Source of the DNA: Chloroflexota bacterium
Lineage (GTDB): Bacteria; Chloroflexota; Dehalococcoidia; Lucifugimonadales; Australimonadaceae
Length of the DNA stretch: 32,000 bases
Reading direction: 5' to 3'
Assembly: GCA_002719775.1 (NCBI GenBank)
Contig: PBEP01000015.1
Span: forward strand, 36,973 to 68,972
Shown: one piece after another, positions 11,671 through 31,098 of the stretch
Layout: each line of letters begins with the position of its first letter
How positions within the stretch are numbered: position 1 is the first letter of the stretch
Notes under the pieces: generated by a model
What the model was told of the DNA's origin: nothing
The model's input: only the letters and a program-made list of their open reading frames with translations
Databases searched by the model: none
Made by a program: the position numbers and the translations under genes

Positions 11671-12915
11671 GTGAGGGCTGAATTGGCAAATACAATATCT
11701 CTAAGGTGTCGTGAGTGTTCGCGGGATTACCCTATCGAACCGTTAAACGTTTGTGAATTTTGCTTTGGCCCATTAGAAGTTGTCTATGATTATGGCGCAA
11801 TAAATGCATCGACGTCTAGAGAAAAAATTGCATCGGGGCCACGTAGCATGTGGAGATATGCTGATTTTCTACCAGCAGACTACAACCCCGTAACAGATAT
11901 TAATGCTGGTTTCACCCCACTAATTCGGTCTCGCAATTTAGCAGAAGAGTTAGGCTTAAAAGAACTGTACATAAAAAATGATAGCGTAAACCCCTCATAT
12001 TCATTTAAGGACAGAGTCGTATCTGTTGCTTCTGCAAAAGCACTCGAATTTGGATTCGATACCATAGCATGTGCTTCTACAGGAAATCTTGCAGGTGCGG
12101 TATCCGCACATGCTGCAAGGTCCGGTATGAAAGCATACGTCTTCATCCCATCTGATCTTGAGGCCGGTAAGGTTCTTACTGCAGCTATTTACGGGGCTAC
12201 CATAGTTTCAGTAGATGGCAGCTATGACGTAGTAAACCGACTGTGCTCTGAATTGGCAGACAAGTACCGTTGGGCATTTGTAAATATAAACGTCCGTCCT
12301 TTTTATGCGGACGGTTCTAAAACATTAGGCTATGAAGTTGCGGAACAACTTGGCTGGAAGGCGCCTGTACATGCTGTTGCTCCAGCTGCCTCGGGAGCAA
12401 TGTTCACGAAAATTTGGAAAGGTCTAAATGAATTTGCCGATGCTGGCTTGATCGATACTCCTGTCAACACTCATATGCACCTTGCTCAAGCTGAAGGATG
12501 TTCTCCCATAGCAAGTGCTTACTTAGATGATCGGTTTATAATTAAACCAGTCAAGCCTGACAGTGTTGCTAAATCACTGGCAATAGGCAACCCTGCTGAT
12601 GGTTATTATGCCTTAAAAACTATAGAGTCTTCAGGTGGCTCCGCAGTAGTCGTAGAAGAGAATGAGGTATCTGAAGGAGTTAAATTACTTGCCAGAACAG
12701 AAGGTATTTTTACAGAGGGAGCAGGCGGAGTCGCAATCTCTGCTCTAAAGAAATTGGCCCAATCAGGTACAATCAAGCCGAATGACCAAACTGTAGTTTA
12801 TATAACTGGTAATGGGCTTAAAACAGTTGAATTGGTTCAGGACGTGGTTCATCCGTTATTAATTGAACCTACGGTGGATGCATTTGAGGCAGCAGTGGAT
12901 ACAAAGGTATCCTAG
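11671..12915 (+). CDS. Threonine synthase family PLP enzyme with an N-terminal zinc ribbon; gene context suggests a MetM-like O-phosphohomoserine-dependent homocysteine synthase
   Basis: CRECSRDY...CEFCFGPLEV is the zinc ribbon. The PLP-lysine motif is SFKDR, with a Gly-rich loop GNGLK. Family membership is clear; whether it is ThrC or MetM cannot be decided by eye. Confidence 0.85.
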   Translation: MRAELANTISLRCRECSRDYPIEPLNVCEFCFGPLEVVYDYGAINASTSREKIASGPRSMWRYADFLPADYNPVTDINAGFTPLIRSRNLAEELGLKELYIKNDSVNPSYSFKDRVVSVASAKALEFGFDTIACASTGNLAGAVSAHAARSGMKAYVFIPSDLEAGKVLTAAIYGATIVSVDGSYDVVNRLCSELADKYRWAFVNINVRPFYADGSKTLGYEVAEQLGWKAPVHAVAPAASGAMFTKIWKGLNEFADAGLIDTPVNTHMHLAQAEGCSPIASAYLDDRFIIKPVKPDSVAKSLAIGNPADGYYALKTIESSGGSAVVVEENEVSEGVKLLARTEGIFTEGAGGVAISALKKLAQSGTIKPNDQTVVYITGNGLKTVELVQDVVHPLLIEPTVDAFEAAVDTKVS

Positions 12916-12943
12916 TATTGAAATATAAATATAGGAGCGTGGC

Positions 12944-13180
12944 ATGCGCCGCGTCAGACTCACATACTTAGATCACATGATAAGACAACCCGTGATTTAC
13001 CAAATGGGTAAAGACTTTGATGTTGTCACCAATATCCGTAGAGCAGACATCCAGGAAAATATAGCTTGGGTGATCTTGGAATTAGAAGGTGATGAAATCG
13101 AAATTGACAATGCATTAGAGTGGGCAAGCTCTCTCGGAGTACGAGTCGATCCTGCCCTGGGTGATTTAGTTGAGGGTTGA
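12944..13180 (+). CDS. Stand-alone NIL-domain protein (the fold of the MetN C-terminal methionine-sensing domain)
   Basis: 78 aa. PVIYQMGKDFDVVTNIRRADIQENIAWVILELEGDEIEIDNALEWASSLGVRVD matches the NIL pattern (..F.V..NIL.A.I......G...L.L.G......A...L...GV.VE). AGGAG lies upstream of the ATG. Confidence 0.6.
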   Translation: MRRVRLTYLDHMIRQPVIYQMGKDFDVVTNIRRADIQENIAWVILELEGDEIEIDNALEWASSLGVRVDPALGDLVEG

Positions 13181-13204
13181 AAATAACAAATATGAGAGAA
13201 AAAG

Positions 13205-13483
13205 ATGAGCACTACTGTCAGAATACCAGGCCCTTTACGTCGATATACAGATAATGCAGATAAAGTCCAAGTTGATGCCGGTAACTTAGTTGATGTAATA
13301 AATCAGCTAAATTCTCTATTCCCTGGCATTCAGGATCGTTTATTAGATGATGCAGGAGAAATGCGTTATTTTGTAAACGTTTACTTAAATGGTGAGGATG
13401 TTAGGTTTTTACAGGGCTTGGAGACACCAATCAATGATGGAGATGAAGTCAGTATTGTTCCTGCTGTAGCTGGTGGATCCTAG
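13205..13483 (+). CDS. MoaD/ThiS-family ubiquitin-like sulfur-carrier protein, C-terminus ...VAGG-S
   Basis: 92 aa. The pattern V.IP..LR........V.V...TV..V...L....P......L.D..G..R.FVNVY.NGEDVR...GL.T....GDEV.I.PA.AGG is typical of MoaD-like carriers. The diglycine is followed by one extra Ser. Confidence 0.75.
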   Translation: MSTTVRIPGPLRRYTDNADKVQVDAGNLVDVINQLNSLFPGIQDRLLDDAGEMRYFVNVYLNGEDVRFLQGLETPINDGDEVSIVPAVAGGS

Positions 13484-13486
13484 AAT

Positions 13487-14173
13487 TTGAACCAAGATCA
13501 ATTTCCTGAAGAGAACGAATTTAGTGAAGTCTATGATGAGGATCTTGACCTAGAAAAACCAGACTTCACATCAAGTAAACAATGGCAGCTGACCAAATAT
13601 GCTGTTAGCGTACTCGTATTAATCGCACTAATACTCCCTGGGATACTATTTCTTCTTGATAGGAATGGTACAAGTTCCACAGCCAAAACCTCAGAAGAAA
13701 AAAATCACAATGCGGTTACAGTTCCTGATTTCACACTTCCAAATTCTGACGGAAAAGAGGTGCGACTTTCTCAAATAAGTTCTAACAATGAATTAGTAAT
13801 ACTGGTCTTTTATCGTGGTTACTTCTGAGGAATTTGCCAAGCACAACTGGTGGAGTTGCAAGAAGTATACCCAAGTATCAGAAAGCTCAATGCAGAAGTC
13901 ATAGCGATTAGCGTTGATAATATTGAAGATGCAGCAAGAATGGCACATCATGCTGAAGCCGAATTTCCAATACTTGCAGATACTAATGCAAATGTTTCTA
14001 AAGCCTATGGTATATATGATTTATTAGGAGATGGAGTAGCAGCACCAACTACCATAATAATTGGTAATCAGGGCCAAGTAATGGCAATTCATGTTGGGAA
14101 ACATATCGCAGATCGAATATCCACAAGTGAGTTACTACAAGTTTTAGCTGATCTAAAATGGAGTGAAGCATAG
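13487..14173 (+). CDS. Membrane-anchored thioredoxin-fold redoxin (AhpC/TSA, PRX-like2 type). Candidate selenoprotein with the in-frame TGA at 13826..13828 read as Sec (U-G-I-C motif); otherwise a nonsense-disrupted pseudogene.
   Basis: ORFs 13487..13828 and 13850..14173 share a frame (offset 363 nt). Read-through gives ...VPDFTLPNSDGKEVRLSQI...LVILVFYRGYF-[TGA]-GICQAQLVELQEVYPSIRKLNAEVIAISVD...FPILADTNANVSKAYGIY. This matches the FYRGxWCPxCxxxL family, with the TGA exactly at the first Cys. There is one N-terminal TM helix. The TTG start at 13487 is uncertain. Confidence 0.6.
13821..13866 (+). promoter_or_regulatory. Candidate bacterial SECIS-like hairpin spanning and following the in-frame TGA
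   Basis: The apical stem is CAACT (13844..13848) / AGTTG (13854..13858) with loop GGTGG (13849..13853), starting 20 nt after the TGA. The lower helices are TTG (13834..13836) / CAA (13859..13861) and ACTTC (13821..13825) / GAAGT (13862..13866), with 5'-side internal loops. Folded by eye only. Confidence 0.35.
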
Positions 14174-14199: not shown

Positions 14200-15885
14200 T
14201 TATTTTGTCATCTTTACTAATATTTCCCGAACAAGTGATTGGTCTATTCCACGATAAAGCGAAGAACTGCCAACCCCGTCCAAAATAACCCATGAGATCT
14301 CACCTGCTTCAGATTTTTTATCGAGTTTAATGGCTTCTAAGATTTGCTCAACAGAAACATTACTAAAAGCTATTGGAAGGTTAAATTCTGCGAGTAATGA
14401 ATTTTGCCGCTCAAGTATCGCGGGATCAGTTTTACCCACCGCCATTCCCAAATTCCCTGCGGCAACCATGCCAATTGACACAGCCTCTCCATGTAAATAC
14501 ACCCCATAACCTGCAGCTGTCTCAATAGCATGCCCAACAGTGTGTCCATAATTTAGAAGAGTTCGAAGCCCACTCATTTCTCGTTCATCTTCAGAAACTA
14601 AACGAGCTTTAAGAGCGACATTTAGTGAAATAATCTTCGTAGTAATTTCAGGTGAGAGATCCAAAAGCTCTTTTACGTGAGTTTCATATAACTCAACCAA
14701 ACCCTTATCTAAAGCGAATCCATGCTTCAAAGCCTCTGCCCAGCCCTGCCCTAATTCTCGTCTTGGGAGGGTCAATAGAGCAGAAACATCTGACAAAACA
14801 AACTTTGGAGGGTAAAAAGCGCCTACTAAGTTTTTCGCATGTGGTAAATCAACAGCTGCCTTGCCACCAATGCTGGAATCAACCATAGCAGTTAAGGTAG
14901 TAGGAATATGAACCATCGCTATTCCACGAAGGTAAGTAGCGGCAACAAAGCCAGCTAGATCTCCTGCTACACCACCACCAACCGAAACAATCACATCTCT
15001 TCGCTCAACCTTAAGTTCTGCCATCCAGTCGAAAACTTTTCTGACTGTATCCAAATTTTTACTTTTTTCTCCTGAAGGAAAAACAAATAAATGTGCTTTT
15101 ATACCAGATTTGTGCATGGAACGTTGGGCCGCTCTACCATAAGGATGTAGAACGCTTTGGTCACACAAAATAAACGCCCTTCCGTTAAAACCTGAACTAG
15201 TAAGTTGAGGACCTAATTCTTTCTCAAGAATCCCCCAGCCCACAAAGATCGGGTAAGAACCAGCAGACGTCATTACAGTAGCCGCTAAGTAATTATTTTC
15301 AACGGGATGGATCTTTTCACTCAAACGATGAGTAAACCTGATGATCTCTTGAGCTACTTGTTCTGTAGAAAGATAATCTGTAGATACAATCCAATGTGCC
15401 TTGGAATATGCCCATTGACGATCATTTTTAATATTTTCTATTTTACTAAGTGAAACTACACCATCTTCAGAGGCGAGTAGTGGTCTTTGCATTTTCTCAG
15501 GTGTATCGTTATTTTTTGAAGATTCAGAAAAATCAATGGCTCTACTGAGCCTTGAAAGGATAGTCTCCGATTGAGCTTCCAAGCAAACACAAAGTCCGCT
15601 ATAAAGCATGTTTTCTCTAGACTGCTGATCTATAAAAGCGCCCCCTCCAGTGGCGATTACTACATTTTCTCGTTTTGAGAGCTCATTAATTATTTCTTTC
15701 TCGTATTCTCGAAAGCCTTTTTCGCCTTTATTAGCAAAAATCTTCTTAATTCCCTGGCCGACAGTTTCGACAATTAATTCATCAGAATCTACAAAGTCCC
15801 ATCGAAGAAGAGAAGCAAGTCGTCGGCCCACAGCAGTTTTTCCTGTTCCAGAAAAACCAACTAGGAATATTCTTGAAGAACTCAT
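14200..15885 (-). CDS. aroKB: Bifunctional shikimate kinase / 3-dehydroquinate synthase (AroK-AroB fusion)
   Basis: The N-terminus IFLVGFSGTGKTAVGRRLA...DSD is the AroK P-loop. The C-terminal ~360 aa carry VSVGGGVAGDLAGFVAATYLRGI...NYGHTVGHAIE, which are AroB motifs. Confidence 0.9.
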   Translation of the reverse strand: MSSSRIFLVGFSGTGKTAVGRRLASLLRWDFVDSDELIVETVGQGIKKIFANKGEKGFREYEKEIINELSKRENVVIATGGGAFIDQQSRENMLYSGLCVCLEAQSETILSRLSRAIDFSESSKNNDTPEKMQRPLLASEDGVVSLSKIENIKNDRQWAYSKAHWIVSTDYLSTEQVAQEIIRFTHRLSEKIHPVENNYLAATVMTSAGSYPIFVGWGILEKELGPQLTSSGFNGRAFILCDQSVLHPYGRAAQRSMHKSGIKAHLFVFPSGEKSKNLDTVRKVFDWMAELKVERRDVIVSVGGGVAGDLAGFVAATYLRGIAMVHIPTTLTAMVDSSIGGKAAVDLPHAKNLVGAFYPPKFVLSDVSALLTLPRRELGQGWAEALKHGFALDKGLVELYETHVKELLDLSPEITTKIISLNVALKARLVSEDEREMSGLRTLLNYGHTVGHAIETAAGYGVYLHGEAVSIGMVAAGNLGMAVGKTDPAILERQNSLLAEFNLPIAFSNVSVEQILEAIKLDKKSEAGEISWVILDGVGSSSLYRGIDQSLVREILVKMTK

Positions 15886-22487: not shown

Positions 22488-24332
22488 TTAAAAGTAAATC
22501 TTTAATTCTTGTACTAGTGCTGGAATGAATTCTTCCCAGTCTGTCACCACGCCAAAATCACAAGACCGGAAAAACTGAGCCCTAGCGTTGTTATTAATTG
22601 CAACTATAGTTCCTGATCGTTGAATCCCTACGGTATGGTTAAAGTCACCTCTTACTCCAACACCTATATACAAACTGGGCGCAACAGAACGGCCAGTTAG
22701 GCCAATTTGACGTTGCCTTGACATCCACCCTGCATCGACTACGTCCCTTGTGCAAATTAATTCTGCACCCAATAACTCGCAAATTGGTTCAAGGGCTTTA
22801 ATATTTTCTTTGCTCCCCACACCCATTCCAACGCACAGCACAGCCCATGCATCTTCTAGATTAGCTGTATCTGCCCCTTCTTCAGCAGTTCTAATGTCTA
22901 TTAAACGCAAGGCGTTGTCCTCTTTAATATCCAAGGCAAGGCTTTGCGTTAAAAAGCTTCGGTCAGGGTTTGCCTCCATACCTTCAAGAAGGCCAGGGCG
23001 AATCGTAGACATATATGGCGAAGTACTTGATAAAATTGGAGCAACTATGTTTCCTCCAAATGCCGGTTTCAATTGCACTAAGCGCAGTTCTTCGTCTACT
23101 TCTAAACCAACACAGTCTCCAGTCAGCCCTAATCCGAGTTTACCGGCAACTCTTGCTGCTAAATCCCTACCATTGATAGTGGATGATAGTAAAACAGCAT
23201 AAGGGGAAAATTCTTGCAAGGCTGATTCAAGTACTTGCGCATAGTTGCTAGTATTGTAATGTTCTAAACAGTCGTCTATCGCTGTTATTACAATATCGGC
23301 TCCTGATTTCCCCAGAATTTCTACACCATCACTGATACGAGATGAGCCTATTGCAAGGCAAATCACATGCCCTTGAATAGCATCAGCAACTTTTGAAGCT
23401 GCGCCTAATAACTCGAAAGTAACTTTTTTAATTCCATTAGTAGTTATATCAGCTACTACCAAGACACTTGGTCCTTTGTTCTGACGCGATTTTACTGAAG
23501 CGAGGGGTGAGGATTTTTTATTTTTGGTTCTCGCATTTTTTTCTAGAACGCCCTTTTGTTTTAAGTAATTAGTTAATGATTTTGCTGCATCGGAATAGCT
23601 AGTTTCTTCGCTAATTAAATTCTGATCCCTACCTGATTCAATAATTTGTATTTCCTCTACCCAAGTAGGTGATCCTTTTTGGCCAAAAATCTCCAAATCT
23701 GAAGATAAATCTTGAGCAGAAATTTCTACAGCTTTGAATTCTCTTGCTTTTTGTACAGCTTCTCGATTGGGAAAAACTTCTGGCGCAATACCCTCAACCA
23801 CGGTGATTACAGCAGGGAGAGTACATTCATATGTTTCAATGCTTTCATCTGTTTCTCTTTCAAGCTGCACTGTTGAGCCATCTACAATGTTTAATTTGCA
23901 CACATTGGTGACTTGAGGTAATCCGAGCATCTCAGCTACTTCTGGGCCTACCTGCCCAGTTTCAGAATCCACACTATGTGCACCAAAGAGCATGATGTCA
24001 TAATTTTGCTTTCTTAAAGCCAAGCTTAGAGCACGGGCTGTGGCTAAAGTGTCTGAGCCTGCCAAGATGGAATCAACTATGTGATATGCATTATCGGCTC
24101 CCATTGCTATACACATTTGCAAACCCTGAAGTGAAGCAGGAGGGCCCATCGTATACACATCAACCTCAATATCATGGCCTTCTTCCCTCAGTTCAATGCA
24201 TCTTTGTACTGCTAATTGATCATAGGAATTAAGTTCATTTGGAACTCCGTCTCGAACAATTCTTTTTGTTTCTAAATCAAATTTCATGCGCGCCACTACA
24301 GGCACCCATTTAACGCATACAGCAATTCTCAT
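22488..24332 (-). CDS. Fused electron transfer flavoprotein, EtfB (N-terminal) plus EtfA (C-terminal) in one 614-aa polypeptide
   Basis: The N-terminus MRIAVCVKWVP...ELNSYDQLAVQRCIELRE is EtfB. The linker is Lys/Ser-rich (ARTKNKKSSPLASVKSRQNKGPS). The C-terminus ...TRDVVDAGWMSRQRQIGLTGRSVAPSLYIGVGVRGDFNHTVGIQRSGTIVAINNN is the EtfA FAD domain. Confidence 0.85.
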   Translation of the reverse strand: MRIAVCVKWVPVVARMKFDLETKRIVRDGVPNELNSYDQLAVQRCIELREEGHDIEVDVYTMGPPASLQGLQMCIAMGADNAYHIVDSILAGSDTLATARALSLALRKQNYDIMLFGAHSVDSETGQVGPEVAEMLGLPQVTNVCKLNIVDGSTVQLERETDESIETYECTLPAVITVVEGIAPEVFPNREAVQKAREFKAVEISAQDLSSDLEIFGQKGSPTWVEEIQIIESGRDQNLISEETSYSDAAKSLTNYLKQKGVLEKNARTKNKKSSPLASVKSRQNKGPSVLVVADITTNGIKKVTFELLGAASKVADAIQGHVICLAIGSSRISDGVEILGKSGADIVITAIDDCLEHYNTSNYAQVLESALQEFSPYAVLLSSTINGRDLAARVAGKLGLGLTGDCVGLEVDEELRLVQLKPAFGGNIVAPILSSTSPYMSTIRPGLLEGMEANPDRSFLTQSLALDIKEDNALRLIDIRTAEEGADTANLEDAWAVLCVGMGVGSKENIKALEPICELLGAELICTRDVVDAGWMSRQRQIGLTGRSVAPSLYIGVGVRGDFNHTVGIQRSGTIVAINNNARAQFFRSCDFGVVTDWEEFIPALVQELKIYF

Positions 24333-25894: not shown

Positions 25895-26872
25895 TTACTT
25901 AAAGTGAGGCAAAACTTCCTTAGCAAATCGATCGAATTGTTCCTTCTGGTCCCATGATGCAAATCGCACAATTAAATGCTGGGCTCCTGCCTCAATATAT
26001 TCTTGCATTTTTCTCACAATTTCATTGGGAGTACCCCAAGGGCCCCATCGTTCACCCCAGTGGCGAACTCCATAATAAGAAATTAAAAAATCATCTGCTT
26101 CTTTGCTAGCTAAATTTTTATCATTGTTAATATTTACCGTCAGGTAAAAAAACCGCTCAATGTTCGAAGAGTCCCTGCCTTCTTCTGAAGCGAGCATCAT
26201 TACCCTTCTACAAGCCTCTTGGTATTCTTCCGGGGAATCAGTAATTCCCATAATGCCATCAGCGTACCTTGCTGCTCTCAAAAATTGTGCTTCTGAACCA
26301 GTTCTATAATGTGTCGCAAGTAACAAAGGAATCCCGTTTTCTTGGTTAGGTTTGGGTTGAATAGATACGTTATCAAGCTTAAAGTGCCTGCCATCAAAAG
26401 AAACATCATTTTCTGTCCATAGACGCTTCAGAATCTGAATGGTCTCGGTAAGTCTTGAAGCACGAGTAGCAGGGTCTACACTTACTGTTGCCCAATCATT
26501 TGATTGTTCTTTTGTGAATGCCCCGCCTACACCAACACCAAGATAAAGCCGTCCCCCAGAAATCACATCGGCAGTAGCTAAACTATGGGCAAGCGTCACA
26601 GGGTGCCTTAAAGTCGGTAACATCACTGCACTACCAATTCTTATTTGGCTGGTACGAGCTCCAAGTGCAGACATAGCAGCTACAGGCTCGAGACGAGGTT
26701 TCGAAACCAGACTATCACCTACCCAAATCGAATCCAGACCAATATTTTCAGCTTTGACTGCTATCTCCATGAACGAATCTGCATTAACTGGTCTGTTTTC
26801 TCTATAGGCACGCATTACCAATCCGCGTGTGGCTAAAAGAACCCCTACTTTAGGTTGGAATTGTCTAGTCAC
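25895..26872 (-). CDS. Luciferase-like monooxygenase (LLM) class oxidoreductase, probably F420-dependent
   Basis: A TIM-barrel LLM pattern: GLDSIWVGDSL...RIGSAVMLPTLRHPVTLAHSLATADVISGGRLYLGVGVGG. The start overlaps the cofC stop by 8 nt. F420 dependence is inferred from context. Confidence 0.75.
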   Translation of the reverse strand: MTRQFQPKVGVLLATRGLVMRAYRENRPVNADSFMEIAVKAENIGLDSIWVGDSLVSKPRLEPVAAMSALGARTSQIRIGSAVMLPTLRHPVTLAHSLATADVISGGRLYLGVGVGGAFTKEQSNDWATVSVDPATRASRLTETIQILKRLWTENDVSFDGRHFKLDNVSIQPKPNQENGIPLLLATHYRTGSEAQFLRAARYADGIMGITDSPEEYQEACRRVMMLASEEGRDSSNIERFFYLTVNINNDKNLASKEADDFLISYYGVRHWGERWGPWGTPNEIVRKMQEYIEAGAQHLIVRFASWDQKEQFDRFAKEVLPHFK

Positions 26873-27596
26873 TTGTTAATTCTTCCTCCTCTAGTGCAAT
26901 CTCCCATGCAGCCTTGACAGGATTCAAAGAGATCCAGTGGTTAACGATTCCCTTAAATTCGGCAAGTTTTTCTGTGAAATTTGGAATATTTGATTGCGCA
27001 TAATTTAAATCTTCTGGTGTATCCACATCAAAAGCTAGCCCAGCTGCGCTAACGCTAATTAGCGGTTTGCCTTCAGCTGAAGTGAAAGCTTTAAAACGAG
27101 AAAAACTATGTTCGCCAAATGAAGGTGGGAAATTTACACCAATCGGCCAAAACATAGCGTTGGTACCTCCATCGGACATTGCCATCGTTCCCACAGGGCT
27201 CTTTAAATCGTCAGTAGCACCAATTAAATCCACCAAATCGCTCTTGCTGACCATTGGAACGTCTGCGGGAATCACTAGAACACCCTTACTGTCAGTGTCC
27301 CAAGCATCCATAATTGCCAAGGAAATTGAAGAATTCAGGTCATGTCCTCGGTCTTCACAAAATTGAAGCCCATGATTTTGTGAAATTTCTTCCACCAATG
27401 CATCTCCACCAACTACTCTGCAATCACCAGCTCTAAAAGCCTGAATTGCTACACTACATACATGATCAAACATTGCCAGAGCAACTGCCTGCCTAGTTAA
27501 GTCATCTACGATTGGTGACAATCGCATCTTTGCATTGACCAGAGGCTTCATTGGAATAATTAATGAGACATTGGAAAATGGAGTGCTAGTCGCCAT
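26865..27596 (-). CDS. cofC: CofC/FbiD-family guanylyltransferase of F420 biosynthesis
   Basis: The N-terminus LIIPMKPLVNAKMRLSP follows the family pattern (IP.K....AK.RL). It also has VLVIPADVPMV and a GGTN motif. It sits between cofD and the LLM gene with overlapping stop and start codons. Confidence 0.75.
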   Translation of the reverse strand: MATSTPFSNVSLIIPMKPLVNAKMRLSPIVDDLTRQAVALAMFDHVCSVAIQAFRAGDCRVVGGDALVEEISQNHGLQFCEDRGHDLNSSISLAIMDAWDTDSKGVLVIPADVPMVSKSDLVDLIGATDDLKSPVGTMAMSDGGTNAMFWPIGVNFPPSFGEHSFSRFKAFTSAEGKPLISVSAAGLAFDVDTPEDLNYAQSNIPNFTEKLAEFKGIVNHWISLNPVKAAWEIALEEEELTSD

Positions 27597-28533
27597 ACCA
27601 ATTCTCCAATAAATTACTTACTTCATTAGCAAGCCTGACTTTATCTTCCGACGTCTCCATAATTGTGTTTGTCACAATAGGTTTGATACCTAAATCTGTA
27701 ATTTTCTTTGATTGTTGATCATCCATATGATCGATCAATAGCGCATCGATTAGCCCAATATAACCCTGCGCTACCGAAACACATGAAGGTTCTTCTCCGA
27801 GTTCAGTCATCATCTTAGCTGCGGGACCTTTAATAGCCTTGCCACCTACAATTGGACTTATAGCTATCCGAGGTCCCTTAAAATTTCGGACTTTCTCACG
27901 TACTCCAGGTATGGCAAGAACTGGCCCTATGCTAACAAGTGGATTCGAAGGGCATAGCACAATAGAACCAGAATTTTTTAGCGCTAATTCAAAATCAGGA
28001 GAAGGAGTAGCTGTTTCAGATCCTTCAAAACGTATAGCTGAAATTTTTGGCTCGCATCTACGGCGAACGAAGTAATCCTGAAAAGGTAATTCGCCTTCTT
28101 CAGTTACAGCAACAGTCTTAATTTGGTCGTTACTCATAGGTATGATGTTTGTATCTATATTAAGCTGCTTACACAAATATTTAGTCGCTTCTGTAAGTGT
28201 ATACCCATTTTGAAGAAGTTCTTTTCTTCTAATATGCGTAGCTAGGTCTGAATCCCCAATTCGAAACCAAACATCACCTCCTAGTCTCTCTAGAGATTCG
28301 AGAAAACGAAAAGTTTCACCCTCTAACCCCCACCCCTGTTCAATATTGGATAAGCCTGCAAGTGTATACATCACGGTATCTAAATCAGGGCTCACGTGCA
28401 GACCATGAAAAGTTTCATCATCAGCGGTATTAACAATTATAGAAAGTTCTGATTTATCAAGAACTCTGGATAAACCCAAGGCTAATTTTGCACCACCGAC
28501 CCCACCGGCAATCGCAAGTACTGGCCTAAACAA
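27586..28533 (-). CDS. cofD: 2-phospho-L-lactate transferase (CofD/FbiA)
   Basis: LAIAGGVGGAKLALGL...NTADDETFHGLHVSPDLDTVMYTLAG...GDSDLATH...LCPSNPLVSIGPVLAIPG are CofD signatures. Confidence 0.9.
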   Translation of the reverse strand: MFRPVLAIAGGVGGAKLALGLSRVLDKSELSIIVNTADDETFHGLHVSPDLDTVMYTLAGLSNIEQGWGLEGETFRFLESLERLGGDVWFRIGDSDLATHIRRKELLQNGYTLTEATKYLCKQLNIDTNIIPMSNDQIKTVAVTEEGELPFQDYFVRRRCEPKISAIRFEGSETATPSPDFELALKNSGSIVLCPSNPLVSIGPVLAIPGVREKVRNFKGPRIAISPIVGGKAIKGPAAKMMTELGEEPSCVSVAQGYIGLIDALLIDHMDDQQSKKITDLGIKPIVTNTIMETSEDKVRLANEVSNLLENWYGD

Positions 28534-29896
28534 CTTTTGATCCTTTTGTTCGATTATCTATTTCCAATAACTCCGGTAAAGTTGGTCCGACAAGCGATGG
28601 AGCTCGTTGTCCATCGTATCGAAAAGGTTCTAGCTTGATTAACTCTTCATACGAACCAAAACGCAAAGGATCTGAAGCTGCAATATCTAATAATTCTAAT
28701 TTAGCAGGCTCTTCTTCATAAACTTTTTCTAACACGTAAAGGGTCGATCTCCTTGCCGGAACTCTCCCCATATTTCTTATCCAATACCTCAATTCTGAAG
28801 GCGGTACCAGCTGGCCATACTGGGCACCTGCAGAAGTAGAGATACTCTCATTTATAAGGGTACCTCCAACATCATTACAACCTGCTGAAAGCAAAATTTG
28901 CGCTAACTTAGGTCCTTCTTTAACCCATGAACACTGGATATTATCTATATAGTTATTCAGCATGATTCGCGACACAGCATGCATCTTTATAACTTCCATT
29001 CCTGTTGCTCCAGGCTGAATTCCTTCAACTAAATTCTGCTGCCACATAGGTGCCTCATTATGAACAAATGAAAGTGGCACGAATTCAGTTATTCCGTAAT
29101 GCACTTTTTGAACATCTCGGATTACTTGAAGGTGAATCGCCCTATCTCTGTAAGTCTCAACGTGACCAAACATTATTGTAGAGGTAGTCGGAATTCCAAT
29201 CTTATGTGCGGAAAGAATTACTTCCTTCCATTGTTCAACTGATATGCGCCCGGGTGAAATTTTGTCCCTTACATCTTGTATTAATATTTCAGCAGAAGTG
29301 CCCGGGAGACTGCCTATGCCTGCTTCTTTTAGCCCCAGAAGGTACTCCGATATAGAGGACTTTGATCGAATTGAACCGTACAGAATTTCTTCTGGAGAAA
29401 ATCCATGTATGTGCATCTGAGGGATCGCTTTTTTTATTTCTCTCGTTAAATCAATATATAAAGATCCTTCCATTTTTGGTGGAAGACCTGCTTGTACACA
29501 AATTTCAGTTGCCCCTAAATCCCAAGCCTCCTGAGCACGCCGTATTATTTCATTCAAAGGTAAAAGGTATCCCTCTTCCTCTCTATGGTCACGGCTAAAT
29601 GCACAAAAGCCACAATGTTTAATACAAACGTTTGTGAAATTGATATTTCGATTTACAACGTAGGTGACCGTATCGCCATTAACCCGTCTCCTAAGCTCAT
29701 CGGCGGTTGCCATTAAGGCAAGCAAGCTTGGAGAGTCAACACCAAACAACTGCTCACCTTCATCAACGGTAATTTCGTCACCTGACAAAGCCTTATCTAA
29801 AATCCTAGCGACTTTGGGTGGAGTCATCTCGATCAGGTTTTCGACAGCCTGATACAAGTAGGGGATTTCATTATTGTTTGTCTTCATACTTACCAT
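28526..29896 (-). CDS. cofH: FO synthase subunit 2 (radical SAM, CofH)
   Basis: TYVVNRNINFTNVCIKHCGFCAF has the CxxxCxxC cluster in the CofH context. The end resembles the C-terminal half of FbiC. At 456 aa it has roughly 55-60 extra C-terminal residues. Confidence 0.85.
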   Translation of the reverse strand: MVSMKTNNNEIPYLYQAVENLIEMTPPKVARILDKALSGDEITVDEGEQLFGVDSPSLLALMATADELRRRVNGDTVTYVVNRNINFTNVCIKHCGFCAFSRDHREEEGYLLPLNEIIRRAQEAWDLGATEICVQAGLPPKMEGSLYIDLTREIKKAIPQMHIHGFSPEEILYGSIRSKSSISEYLLGLKEAGIGSLPGTSAEILIQDVRDKISPGRISVEQWKEVILSAHKIGIPTTSTIMFGHVETYRDRAIHLQVIRDVQKVHYGITEFVPLSFVHNEAPMWQQNLVEGIQPGATGMEVIKMHAVSRIMLNNYIDNIQCSWVKEGPKLAQILLSAGCNDVGGTLINESISTSAGAQYGQLVPPSELRYWIRNMGRVPARRSTLYVLEKVYEEEPAKLELLDIAASDPLRFGSYEELIKLEPFRYDGQRAPSLVGPTLPELLEIDNRTKGSKVV

Positions 29897-31098
29897 CTTT
29901 CCAGATCAGTTTTTATATACCCGTCAGGACTCGTAATGTCTAAAACTTTTTGCCTTACTGATGAAGAAATAAACCATTTACCCGAAGACACATAATCGGG
30001 AAATAAAGCGGTGCGTTCCCGCAATTCGAAACCAGCATCAGAGGTTAAGCGACGCAATTTTGAAACTTCAGGCCAAGCACGTTCTGGATTGATGAAATCT
30101 TTTGTCAAAGGTGAGATCCCGCCCCAGTCATTAATACCCGCGAGCAGGTAAGTTTGGCAAGATTCTTCATTGAGGTTCGGAGGAGATTCAATATTCATCG
30201 ATGCTCCCATGAAAAGTCGTGCCACAGCTTGAGTTTTCAGCAAATCTAAAACATTTGCATCGGGTATTGCGCTCATACGAGTGTCATTTTTTGCTCTAAA
30301 ATTCTGAATTATTATCTCTTGAATATTTCCGTATTCTTCATTAATTTTCCTTATTTTCATCAGCGAATCTACACGATCTTTATGGGTTTCTCCTATACCA
30401 ATCAAAATACCTGTGGTCATAGCTACGCCTAGTTCACCCGCATTCGATAGTGTATTCAACCTATCCACTGGCGCTTTGGTAACAGTCTTATAGTGAGCAC
30501 CACCCACATTATGCAAAGCCATGCTTGTACTCTCTAGCATGATTCCCATGCTTACATTCCAGGGCGCTATCACAGAAATTTCATCTTTATCCAGTAATCC
30601 GCAATTAGTATGAGGCAAAAGGCCAGTTTCTTCTAAAATTAATCTCGACATAGCAGCTACATAGTCAATAGTGGAATTAAAGCCAAACTCTCTCAAAGTA
30701 TCAAGAATTTCTGGATGCCGGTATTCAGGATGATCACCAAGAGATAAAAGTGCTTCCTTGCATCCCAAAGATTGCCCTTGTCGTGCAACTTTCAACACTT
30801 CATCTGGCGACATAGTGTGTGCACCAGCTTGCTCAGGGCCTTTAACAAAAGTGCAGTAACCGCATCGGTCTCTACAAAGATTAGTTAAAGGTAAGAAAAT
30901 TTTCCTGGAGTACGTGATTTTACGAGTTTGCTGGGTATTATTTCGCAGTTCTGATGCAGCCCACATTAAAGTAGTTAATTGGGAAGCATCGGATTCAATT
31001 AAAGCATAGCCCTCATCTAAATCTAAAGATTGACCTGAAAGAGCTCTATCCAAAATTGGTGCGAGTTTGGGATTGATTTTAGATGCGATATCGACCAA
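29890..31098 (-). CDS. cofG: FO synthase subunit 1 (radical SAM, CofG)
   Basis: ITYSRKIFLPLTNLCRDRCGYCTFV matches the N-terminal (CofG) half of FbiC. The TTG start follows GGGAGTGGTGAG. Confidence 0.85.
   Translation of the reverse strand: MVDIASKINPKLAPILDRALSGQSLDLDEGYALIESDASQLTTLMWAASELRNNTQQTRKITYSRKIFLPLTNLCRDRCGYCTFVKGPEQAGAHTMSPDEVLKVARQGQSLGCKEALLSLGDHPEYRHPEILDTLREFGFNSTIDYVAAMSRLILEETGLLPHTNCGLLDKDEISVIAPWNVSMGIMLESTSMALHNVGGAHYKTVTKAPVDRLNTLSNAGELGVAMTTGILIGIGETHKDRVDSLMKIRKINEEYGNIQEIIIQNFRAKNDTRMSAIPDANVLDLLKTQAVARLFMGASMNIESPPNLNEESCQTYLLAGINDWGGISPLTKDFINPERAWPEVSKLRRLTSDAGFELRERTALFPDYVSSGKWFISSSVRQKVLDITSPDGYIKTDLERW

Follow-up and report, generated by a model that had tools for sequence, protein, structure and literature searches.

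An in-frame TGA at the redox site of a Prx-like protein gene from marine Chloroflexota almost certainly encodes selenocysteine

When two short open reading frames (ORFs) lie in one frame and are separated by a single TGA, they may be two genes, the remains of one, or one gene in which the TGA is read as selenocysteine (Sec). This question is raised by positions 13487..14173 (+) of a 32,000-nucleotide stretch of contig PBEP01000015.1 from a Chloroflexota bacterium of the class Dehalococcoidia (assembly GCA_002719775.1), the whole of which is called the window here. An earlier inspection of the letters alone, referred to below as the sequence-only reading, had proposed a Sec-decoded redoxin gene at this locus. 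The analysis presented here indicates, with near certainty, that both ORFs are parts of a single gene in which the in-frame TGA encodes selenocysteine, and that the product is a membrane-anchored redox protein with a thioredoxin fold.

The upstream ORF (13487..13828, +) starts with TTG, encodes 113 amino acids with the C-terminus ...ELVILVFYRGYF, and is closed by the TGA at 13826..13828. The downstream ORF (13850..14173, +) starts with the GTG at 13850, encodes 107 amino acids, and ends with the TAG at 14171..14173. The sequence confirms that both ORFs share one frame, with the TGA and seven in-frame sense codons (GGA ATT TGC CAA GCA CAA CTG) preceding GTG 13850. Read through, the locus is a complete predicted selenoprotein gene of 228 codons (13487..14173, +), with a TTG start, Sec at codon 114, and a TAG stop. 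A TTG start is called at the equivalent position in the orthologous loci L171 and L172, and a Shine-Dalgarno-like GGTGGA can be read at 13472-13477. With Cys in place of the stop, the joined product of 228 residues matches the Pfam family AhpC-TSA with 108.8 bits (E 2.2e-31, profile positions 5-123 of 124) and Redoxin with 86.6 bits, whereas the N half alone scores 24.9 bits against AhpC-TSA, under the cut-off of 26, and the C half alone covers profile positions 47-123 only. The AhpC-TSA (PF00578) threshold is passed only with both ORFs joined across the TGA, in agreement with the earlier claim that neither half is a complete domain. In public records the product of 113 amino acids is a 'redoxin domain-containing protein' and that of 107 or 113 amino acids a 'hypothetical protein'. 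The NCBI versions of the C half that have 113 amino acids (P0046, P0049; window 13829-13849) begin at ATT two codons past the TGA, a start call that is an artefact of the unrecognised Sec codon.

Alignment with homologs places the TGA (13826..13828, +), the predicted Sec codon, at the column of the first Cys of a CxxC motif, that is, at the N-terminal, attacking position of a U-G-I-C redox motif. About 150 genome and metagenome loci were fetched, and at the 154 sites of Cys homologs, which were used as the control set, the aligned codon is TGT (89) or TGC (65), as expected if the TGA stands for the N-terminal redox Cys as first proposed. These scans with the homolog alignment gave nearly only Cys homologs, with L104 and L106 as the TGA loci; the near-absence of TGA loci is probably due to the tblastn confirmation breaking at the stop. 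The second Cys of the motif, the putative resolving Cys of UxxC, is encoded by TGC at 13835..13837 (+) and corresponds to the invariant column C42 of the homolog alignment. Alignment to the BCP peroxiredoxins (2cx3, 2ywn) sets FYRGYF-U-GI-C opposite FFPAAF-S-PV-C, with Sec at the Thr/Ser position and the conserved Pro replaced by Arg; the second Cys is therefore the counterpart of the peroxidatic Cys of true peroxiredoxins. The classical peroxiredoxin signature PxxxTxxC is thus absent, with Arg for Pro and Sec for Ser/Thr, and judging from the alignment the active site is a thioredoxin (Trx)-like CxxC arrangement on a peroxiredoxin (Prx) scaffold, of the PRX-like2 type, not a classical peroxiredoxin site.

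The TGA is not peculiar to the window. Eleven independent metagenomic loci (about 40-71% amino acid identity) have it in the equivalent position, which adds 17 distinct sites. Orthologs found with the C half retain it at 71% identity over that half (L171), at 69% (L172-174), and at 53% (L175). The TGA also stands at this column in L176 (1-1605), which encodes an N-terminal region, a TlpA-like thioredoxin domain with WCPPC, and a C-terminal Sec-containing Prx-like domain (VLVFYRGHT-U-GIC), and in a U-PFC-type subfamily with Acidobacteria-like relatives (FYRGYW-C-PFC), in L104 (3100) and L106 (534). In addition, the first protein search returned odd 'middle fragments' (P0004-7, P0010, P0013, P0021) that start just past a CxxC and end with ...VLVFYRAYW. 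The DNA behind these fragments encodes tandem Prx-like lipoproteins of two or three domains with TGA at the same column in their Sec domains, and gene callers chop the tandem proteins into these pieces. The tandem loci are Chloroflexota-like and have two TGA sites in L001 (5704-6900), L163 (685, 1225), and L165 (738, 1314), three in L164 (93, 708, 1515), and one in L002 (6592), which combines one TGA domain with one Cys domain (CTGC). In the tandem proteins every Sec domain comes with a separate in-frame TGA at the CxxC position, followed by a separate mini-hairpin.

At closer range, near-identical copies from six independent assemblies (L003, L166-L170; Tara Oceans/NCBI, ENA, and Logan) all carry the TGA. 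The 90%-identity clusters contain split forms only, with the N half on at least 39 contigs and one variant of the C half on 55, and no full-length Cys version is found in them. When the 50%-cluster representatives closest to the C half are taken (n = 150), about 95 begin directly past the Sec column, 38 have Cys there, and 5 have W. Database proteins with W exactly at the Sec column (P0009, P0016, P0087, P0116, P0164, P0200, P0205; e.g., VFYRGHF-W-GICRA) are most likely the result of a gene caller translating TGA as Trp under code 4. No scattered stops or frameshifts of the kind expected from decay occur in the orthologs, which have a single TGA per site at the exact column over 40-99% amino acid identity.

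Substitution rates bear on whether the part beyond the TGA is translated. Synonymous changes between the window, L171, and L172 have reached saturation (dS >1 or undefined). The nonsynonymous rate dN amounts to 0.17-0.22 past the TGA, compared with 0.23-0.30 in the N-terminal part of the domain; dN/dS is 0.12-0.22 where definable, on both sides of the TGA. The combination of saturated dS and low dN past the apparent stop means that this part is translated and constrained, which in turn excludes a pseudogene. The sequence-only reading had preferred a Sec gene over a pseudogene, and both the retention of the TGA and the purifying selection downstream of it support that choice.

TGA is an ordinary stop elsewhere in the window, as had been pointed out for cysS (3296), the NIL gene (13178-13180), and ruvX (18065), to which ispF (4663) can be added; the remaining tabulated ORFs end with TAG (n = 13) or TAA (n = 11). 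Because TGA terminates these four ordinary genes, there is no global recoding, and reassignment of TGA under code 4 or 25 was rejected. No second genuine gene split by one TGA is found in the 32-kb window.

A signal that might direct Sec insertion was sought in the RNA downstream of the UGA. The sequence-only reading had reported a hairpin there at a spacing like that of a Sec insertion sequence (SECIS). The core of the candidate is a SECIS-like hairpin CAACU-GGUGG-AGUUG at 13844..13858 (+), in which 13844-13848 pair with 13854-13858 around an apical loop at 13849-13853. Analysis with RNAalifold of 14 distinct Sec sites (UGA to +48) identifies as the sole conserved element a 5-bp stem formed by nucleotides 19-23 and 29-33 from the U of UGA. 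This core stem is conserved, being paired 100% in 14/14 Sec sites in the same register throughout, and pair 21:31 covaries (AU 6, GC 5, GU 3) with no A.C or other mismatch. When the stem partner is shifted by 1-3 nucleotides, pairing falls to 10-37%. In L176 a change of E to Q (GAG to CAG) turns a G.G juxtaposition into a sixth G-C pair, giving a perfect 6-bp stem.

Codon choice points in the same region. Only 29 of 118 conserved-residue codons are identical in the window, L171, and L172, and these include C151, Q152, Q154, L155, E157, L158, and Q159; the third base of the Val codon in the loop is free to vary. With L175 added, 8 of 64 conserved-residue codon columns are identical, four of them stem codons, and in the comparisons of these four loci the identity of other conserved-residue codons is only 12-25%. 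With the codon usage of the window (CAA 73%, GAA 72%, CUG 8%, UUG 20%), the peptide QLxEL would give all five base pairs just 14% of the time. A published model of bacterial SECIS elements has a loop of 3-9 nucleotides, an upper stem of 4-16 bp, a minimum free energy (MFE) of -7.5 kcal/mol or lower, and a G at loop position 1 or 2 with, as a rule, G or U after it (PMC13188914). The core hairpin agrees with three of four such constraints, namely sizes, a loop that starts with G-G/U, and spacing. Its stem and loop are 5 bp and 5 nucleotides in the window, and 6-7 bp with a 3-nucleotide loop in G+C-rich homologs and L176; the window loop reads GGUGG, and those of L171, L172, and L175 read GGUUG or GGUCG; and the distance from UGA to loop is 20 nucleotides (13829-13848), inside the range of 16-37. 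Like the bSECISearch consensus, of which fdhF of E. coli is the archetype, the element is a hairpin in the coding sequence just past UGA with a 5-bp upper stem and a 5-nucleotide loop starting G-G-U. It differs in being far shorter and weaker and in being partly dictated by QLxEL, and comparison of the Sec sites detects neither a conserved lower stem nor a bulged U in the window-type hairpin. The loop of fdhF has GGUC at nucleotides 22-25 from the U of UGA, and the window loop lies at 24-28. The downstream hairpins of L104 and L106 are in another register: in L104 a CGGC/GCCG stem carries an AGUUA loop, and L106 has a strong stem of -18.4 kcal/mol.

Several observations weigh against the hairpin as a SECIS and, more generally, against Sec decoding. 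The core hairpin is weak by itself (-3.1 kcal/mol, z = -1.6), the unconstrained MFE fold of the window sequence favours a competing pairing, and the limit of -7.5 kcal/mol is reached only if a non-conserved lower helix is counted. Constrained folds have -4.9 kcal/mol from UGA to +45 and -13.3 kcal/mol from -9 to +48 with that helix included; the G+C-rich homologs have -7.4 to -17.9 kcal/mol. The five base pairs are also formed by 23 of 36 Cys homologs with QLxEL (among L004-L162, e.g., L073, L089, and L112), at an equal distance from the Cys codon. The peptide QLxEL by itself thus favours formation of the hairpin, and the SECIS claim is weakened to that extent; the one-sided hypergeometric test against these Cys homologs, calculated by hand, gives p ~0.007, a value that ignores phylogeny. 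No Rfam family, SECIS or other, matches at gathering or permissive thresholds. Finally, no selA, selB, selD, or tRNA-Sec gene is found within the 32-kb window or the fetched homologous loci, and a tRNA-Sec search returned none in the window or in seven homologous loci.

The hairpin first reported was probably a longer fold that contains the TGA (13820..13867, +), in which a possible lower helix, 13820-13826 with 13861-13867, encloses both the TGA and the core hairpin. This fold exists but is not significant alone (-13.6 kcal/mol, z = -0.93); its lower helix has a different register in L171 and is missing in L172, and a function for it is unsupported. What is conserved is the small stem-loop with its covarying pair. 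An alternative lower helix (columns 8-11 with 34-37) was rejected, being 71% paired and often equalled by shuffles, and the window's alternative GCCA/UGGU pairing is kept only within the A+T-rich clade. Because neither the long fold nor the core is significant alone, the case for the hairpin rests on comparative data. A canonical SECIS is missing from about 13% of the bacterial selenoprotein genes that have been catalogued (PMC13326102). We suggest, tentatively and with less than even expectation, that the insertion signal is an unusually small (15-nucleotide, 5-bp) SECIS written into the codons of Q-L-x-E-L, in a family that would thereby be 'SECIS-ready'.

The explanation with the most to recommend it after Sec decoding is that a near-cognate (Trp or Cys) or suppressor tRNA reads the UGA, with the hairpin acting as a read-through stimulator and not as a SelB-binding SECIS. 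The lack of Sec machinery in the 32-kb window, the minimal hairpin under the usual SECIS energy threshold, and the W at this column in database proteins such as P0009, P0016, P0087, and P0116 would all be in line with it. Yet the column is that of the catalytic nucleophile, a classic site of Sec/Cys exchange at which Trp would abolish activity, Cys could simply be encoded by TGC or TGT as it is at the 154 homologous sites, and the W calls are most simply code-4 gene calling. The family is moreover catalogued as a selenoprotein family, the host class is selenoprotein-rich, and both the G-G/U signature of the loop and its spacing are those of bacterial SECIS elements, so that Sec-independent recoding appears improbable. 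Still less probable is that two separate products are made, a membrane protein of 113 amino acids ending at the TGA and a protein of 107 amino acids re-initiated at GTG 13850. A GTG does lie seven codons past the TGA and gene callers accept both ORFs, but neither half is a complete fold, and the seven codons in between, which encode the QL motif and the invariant resolving Cys, stay in frame in every homolog. The first possible start past the TGA varies among homologs, and there is therefore no conserved restart codon.

The chance that the locus is a pseudogene, an ordinary CxxC redoxin broken by a nonsense mutation into two decaying ORFs, is slighter again, to the point of being negligible. 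A single point mutation (TGC or TGT to TGA) would suffice, and public annotation does list the halves as separate short ORFs; such a mutation would not account for the TGA at the same column in 17 further sites at 40-71% identity and in all near-identical copies from independent samples, for a downstream half with dN/dS of about 0.12, saturated dS, and no additional stops or frameshifts, or for the lack of a Cys version in the 90% clusters. To a sequencing or assembly error at 13826-13828 we assign no probability at all, given the identical TGA in L003 and L166-L170, which come from different projects and assemblers, and in diverged orthologs; the possibility of a misread TGC or TGT is thereby disposed of. 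Sec decoding of a single gene is the reading retained in what follows.

The closest described family is 'Prx-like 1', a predicted selenoprotein family from the Sargasso Sea and Global Ocean Sampling (GOS) marine selenoproteomes, with pfam00578 similarity, a UxxC motif, 225 Sec sequences, and 2,740 Cys homologs (Zhang & Gladyshev, PLoS Genet 2008, PMC2398784). Later reviews describe a 'Prx-like thiol:disulfide oxidoreductase' with PF00578, UxxC/UxxU, and 1-2 Sec (PMC13188914). The window gene shares with Prx-like 1 the AhpC-TSA similarity, the UxxC motif, and the marine origin. A read filed under Prx-like 1 in the supplement of the 2008 study, JCVI_READ_852987 (...VFYRGYFUGICRAQLGEL...VLGDGVAAPAAFIVG...DRP...; PMC2398784), matches the window protein exactly in the active-site string VFYRGYF-U-GIC, shares its LGDGVAAP...DRP signature, and shows 39% identity to it over 119 amino acids (E 7e-34). 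The sequence-only reading had noted that Prx-like or Trx-like UxxC families are known from marine metagenomes, and the family and its motif had in fact been described before as a predicted UxxC selenoprotein. The GOS member has an N-terminal lipoprotein-type signal, whereas the window group has a signal-anchor with an acidic tail and no lipobox; in the ortholog group of the window, from marine Dehalococcoidia, the gene sits after a ThiS/MoaD gene, and its identity to the GOS member is only 39%. Assignment to Prx-like 1 thus draws on the Sec/Cys pair column (TGA against 154 Cys codons), conservation of the TGA with purifying selection, and similarity together with a motif match to a member.

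Comparison with other redox families gives more distant relationships. The best NCBIfam match is the SelL-related redox protein (NF040769), which shares the FYRG-x-W/F-C/U-xx-C architecture within the PRX-like2 CxxC group and the alignment of its second Cys with the Prx peroxidatic Cys; at 62.2 bits against a cut-off of 120, over profile positions 2-100 of 173, the window protein is not a member. Animal SelL has UxxU. PrxU (NF040737) and BCP/PrxQ (2cx3, 2ywn) share the fold, and no solved structure matches better than BCP (E 8.5e-14), but in those proteins the Sec or Cys of TxxC/TxxU has the peroxidatic role, whereas the window Sec stands at the Thr/Ser position, and the PrxU score is 50.6 bits against a cut-off of 270. 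ResA, TlpA, and StoA are, like the window protein as far as its location can be judged, membrane-anchored or lipoprotein thioredoxin-fold CxxC reductases on the outward side of the membrane, and ResA (NF002854) is the second-best NCBIfam match (60.9 bits), far under its cut-off of 170; their motif is W-C-xx-C, in contrast to FYRGYF-U-GIC here. No cytochrome-maturation genes or CcdA are found near the window gene. Membership in WAxxUGC_long (NF041054) was rejected (38 against a cut-off of 300).

In the translation, a hydrophobic signal-anchor or transmembrane segment, YAVSVLVLIALILPGILFLL (13598..13657, +; residues ~38-57), follows an acidic N-terminal tail. The thioredoxin-fold AhpC-TSA/Redoxin domain interrupted by the TGA spans 13718..14140 (+), residues 78-218, with PF00578 at 79-200 and PF08534 at 78-218. 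Homologs have lipoprotein-type signal peptides with a lipobox Cys (LAAAC in L001, AVAC in L002, LAGC in P0003, LMAC in P0012, and LSC in the GOS read). Because of the hydrophobic N-terminal helix here and the lipoprotein signals in homologs, the redox domain most likely lies outside the cytoplasmic membrane. We are confident, though short of certain, that a single gene occupies 13487..14173 and that its product is a thiol/selenol-disulfide oxidoreductase of thioredoxin fold, anchored in the membrane, probably facing outward, and belonging to the 'Prx-like 1' UxxC type.

For Sec insertion itself, SelB binding, topology, and substrate, we infer the following course. The UGA at 13826-13828 would be decoded as selenocysteine by SelB and Sec-tRNA(Sec), recruited by the coding-sequence stem-loop at 13844-13858 with its GGU-containing apical loop 20 nucleotides past the UGA. 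The selenolate of Sec114 would serve as the attacking nucleophile and Cys117 would resolve through a selenenylsulfide (U-G-I-C), as in Trx-like CxxC proteins, after which some electron donor would reduce the Se-S bond again. Since the Pro and Thr of PxxxTxxC are replaced, the protein is more likely to be a reductase of disulfides or peroxide-derived oxidants, of the ResA/TlpA/Prx-like2 sort, than a classical peroxiredoxin.

Members of the ThiS and redoxin-half clusters bear the names 'Dehalococcoidia bacterium' (MBT18259.1, MBT18261.1) and 'Chloroflexi/Chloroflexota bacterium' (MBJ28095.1, MBJ28097.1), with one bin labelled Gammaproteobacteria, and many contigs come from Tara Oceans. These cluster names are the basis of the taxon assignment, as four long window proteins had no exact match in the collection, probably through different start calls. 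Two Dehalococcoidia genomes, with 46 and 49 selenoprotein genes, are among the ten most selenoprotein-rich bacteria (PMC13326102). The window itself has a G+C content of 41.5% and carries housekeeping genes, an F420 biosynthesis cluster, and a luciferase-like monooxygenase gene. Directly upstream of the selenoprotein gene (11671-13483) lie genes for a threonine-synthase-like pyridoxal-phosphate enzyme whose N-terminus bears a Cys-rich ribbon, for a NIL-domain protein, and for a sulfur-carrier protein of the ThiS/MoaD type, which look like a sulfur-carrier-dependent biosynthetic cassette; this cassette has the same orientation as the selenoprotein gene and is probably co-transcribed with it, the ThiS stop and the redoxin TTG start being 3 nucleotides apart. 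At this junction, a 45-nucleotide deletion between TTCCTG direct repeats (window ~13456-13500 against L003; P0001, P0068) removes the C-terminal Gly-Gly and the stop of the ThiS/MoaD ORF and joins it in frame to the redoxin ORF. The deletion comes from low-coverage ENA contigs and could reflect either genuine variation in the population or faulty assembly. The ThiS-redoxin adjacency is kept in L171 and L166-169 and absent from more distant homologs, with ribosomal protein genes upstream in L175 and tyrS, an aminotransferase gene, and DUF1015 around the tandem forms. The neighbourhood is not conserved across the family, and context therefore points to no functional partner. Elsewhere in the window, the F420 genes (CofC-like, CofD, and two radical-SAM CofH/CofG-like; 25895-31098, -) adjoin the luciferase-like monooxygenase gene, a fusion of shikimate kinase and 3-dehydroquinate synthase (561 amino acids) is encoded at 14200-15885 (-), and a 613-amino-acid protein with two electron-transfer flavoprotein (ETF) domains and ETF_alpha, an ETF beta-alpha fusion, at 22488-24332 (-).

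The window gene is almost certainly a genuine Sec-encoding gene, misannotated as two ORFs, of a family already known from marine metagenomes, and it leaves knowledge of selenoprotein families unchanged. Its main value is practical, in that the public entries of 113 and 107 or 113 amino acids should be a single selenoprotein of 228 residues. What is mildly new is confined to two features, the conserved SECIS-like hairpin of very small size that the QLxEL codons contain and the tandem relatives with 2-3 Sec codons; the 14 aligned Sec sites with this hairpin could help to widen bacterial SECIS models. If the 'SECIS-ready' proposal is true, the element would be a natural minimal bacterial SECIS under the thresholds of current predictors, in which a protein motif and a recoding signal co-evolve. 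The peptide motif could ease switching between Cys and Sec in the family, which would explain why Sec forms dominate among the closest relatives (about 95 of 150 cluster representatives), and would also explain the exported Chloroflexota tandem proteins with 2-3 Sec codons and a mini-hairpin for each codon. For the organisms themselves, the gene adds a clean and well-supported example of selenium being used, in this case by an abundant group of marine Chloroflexota.

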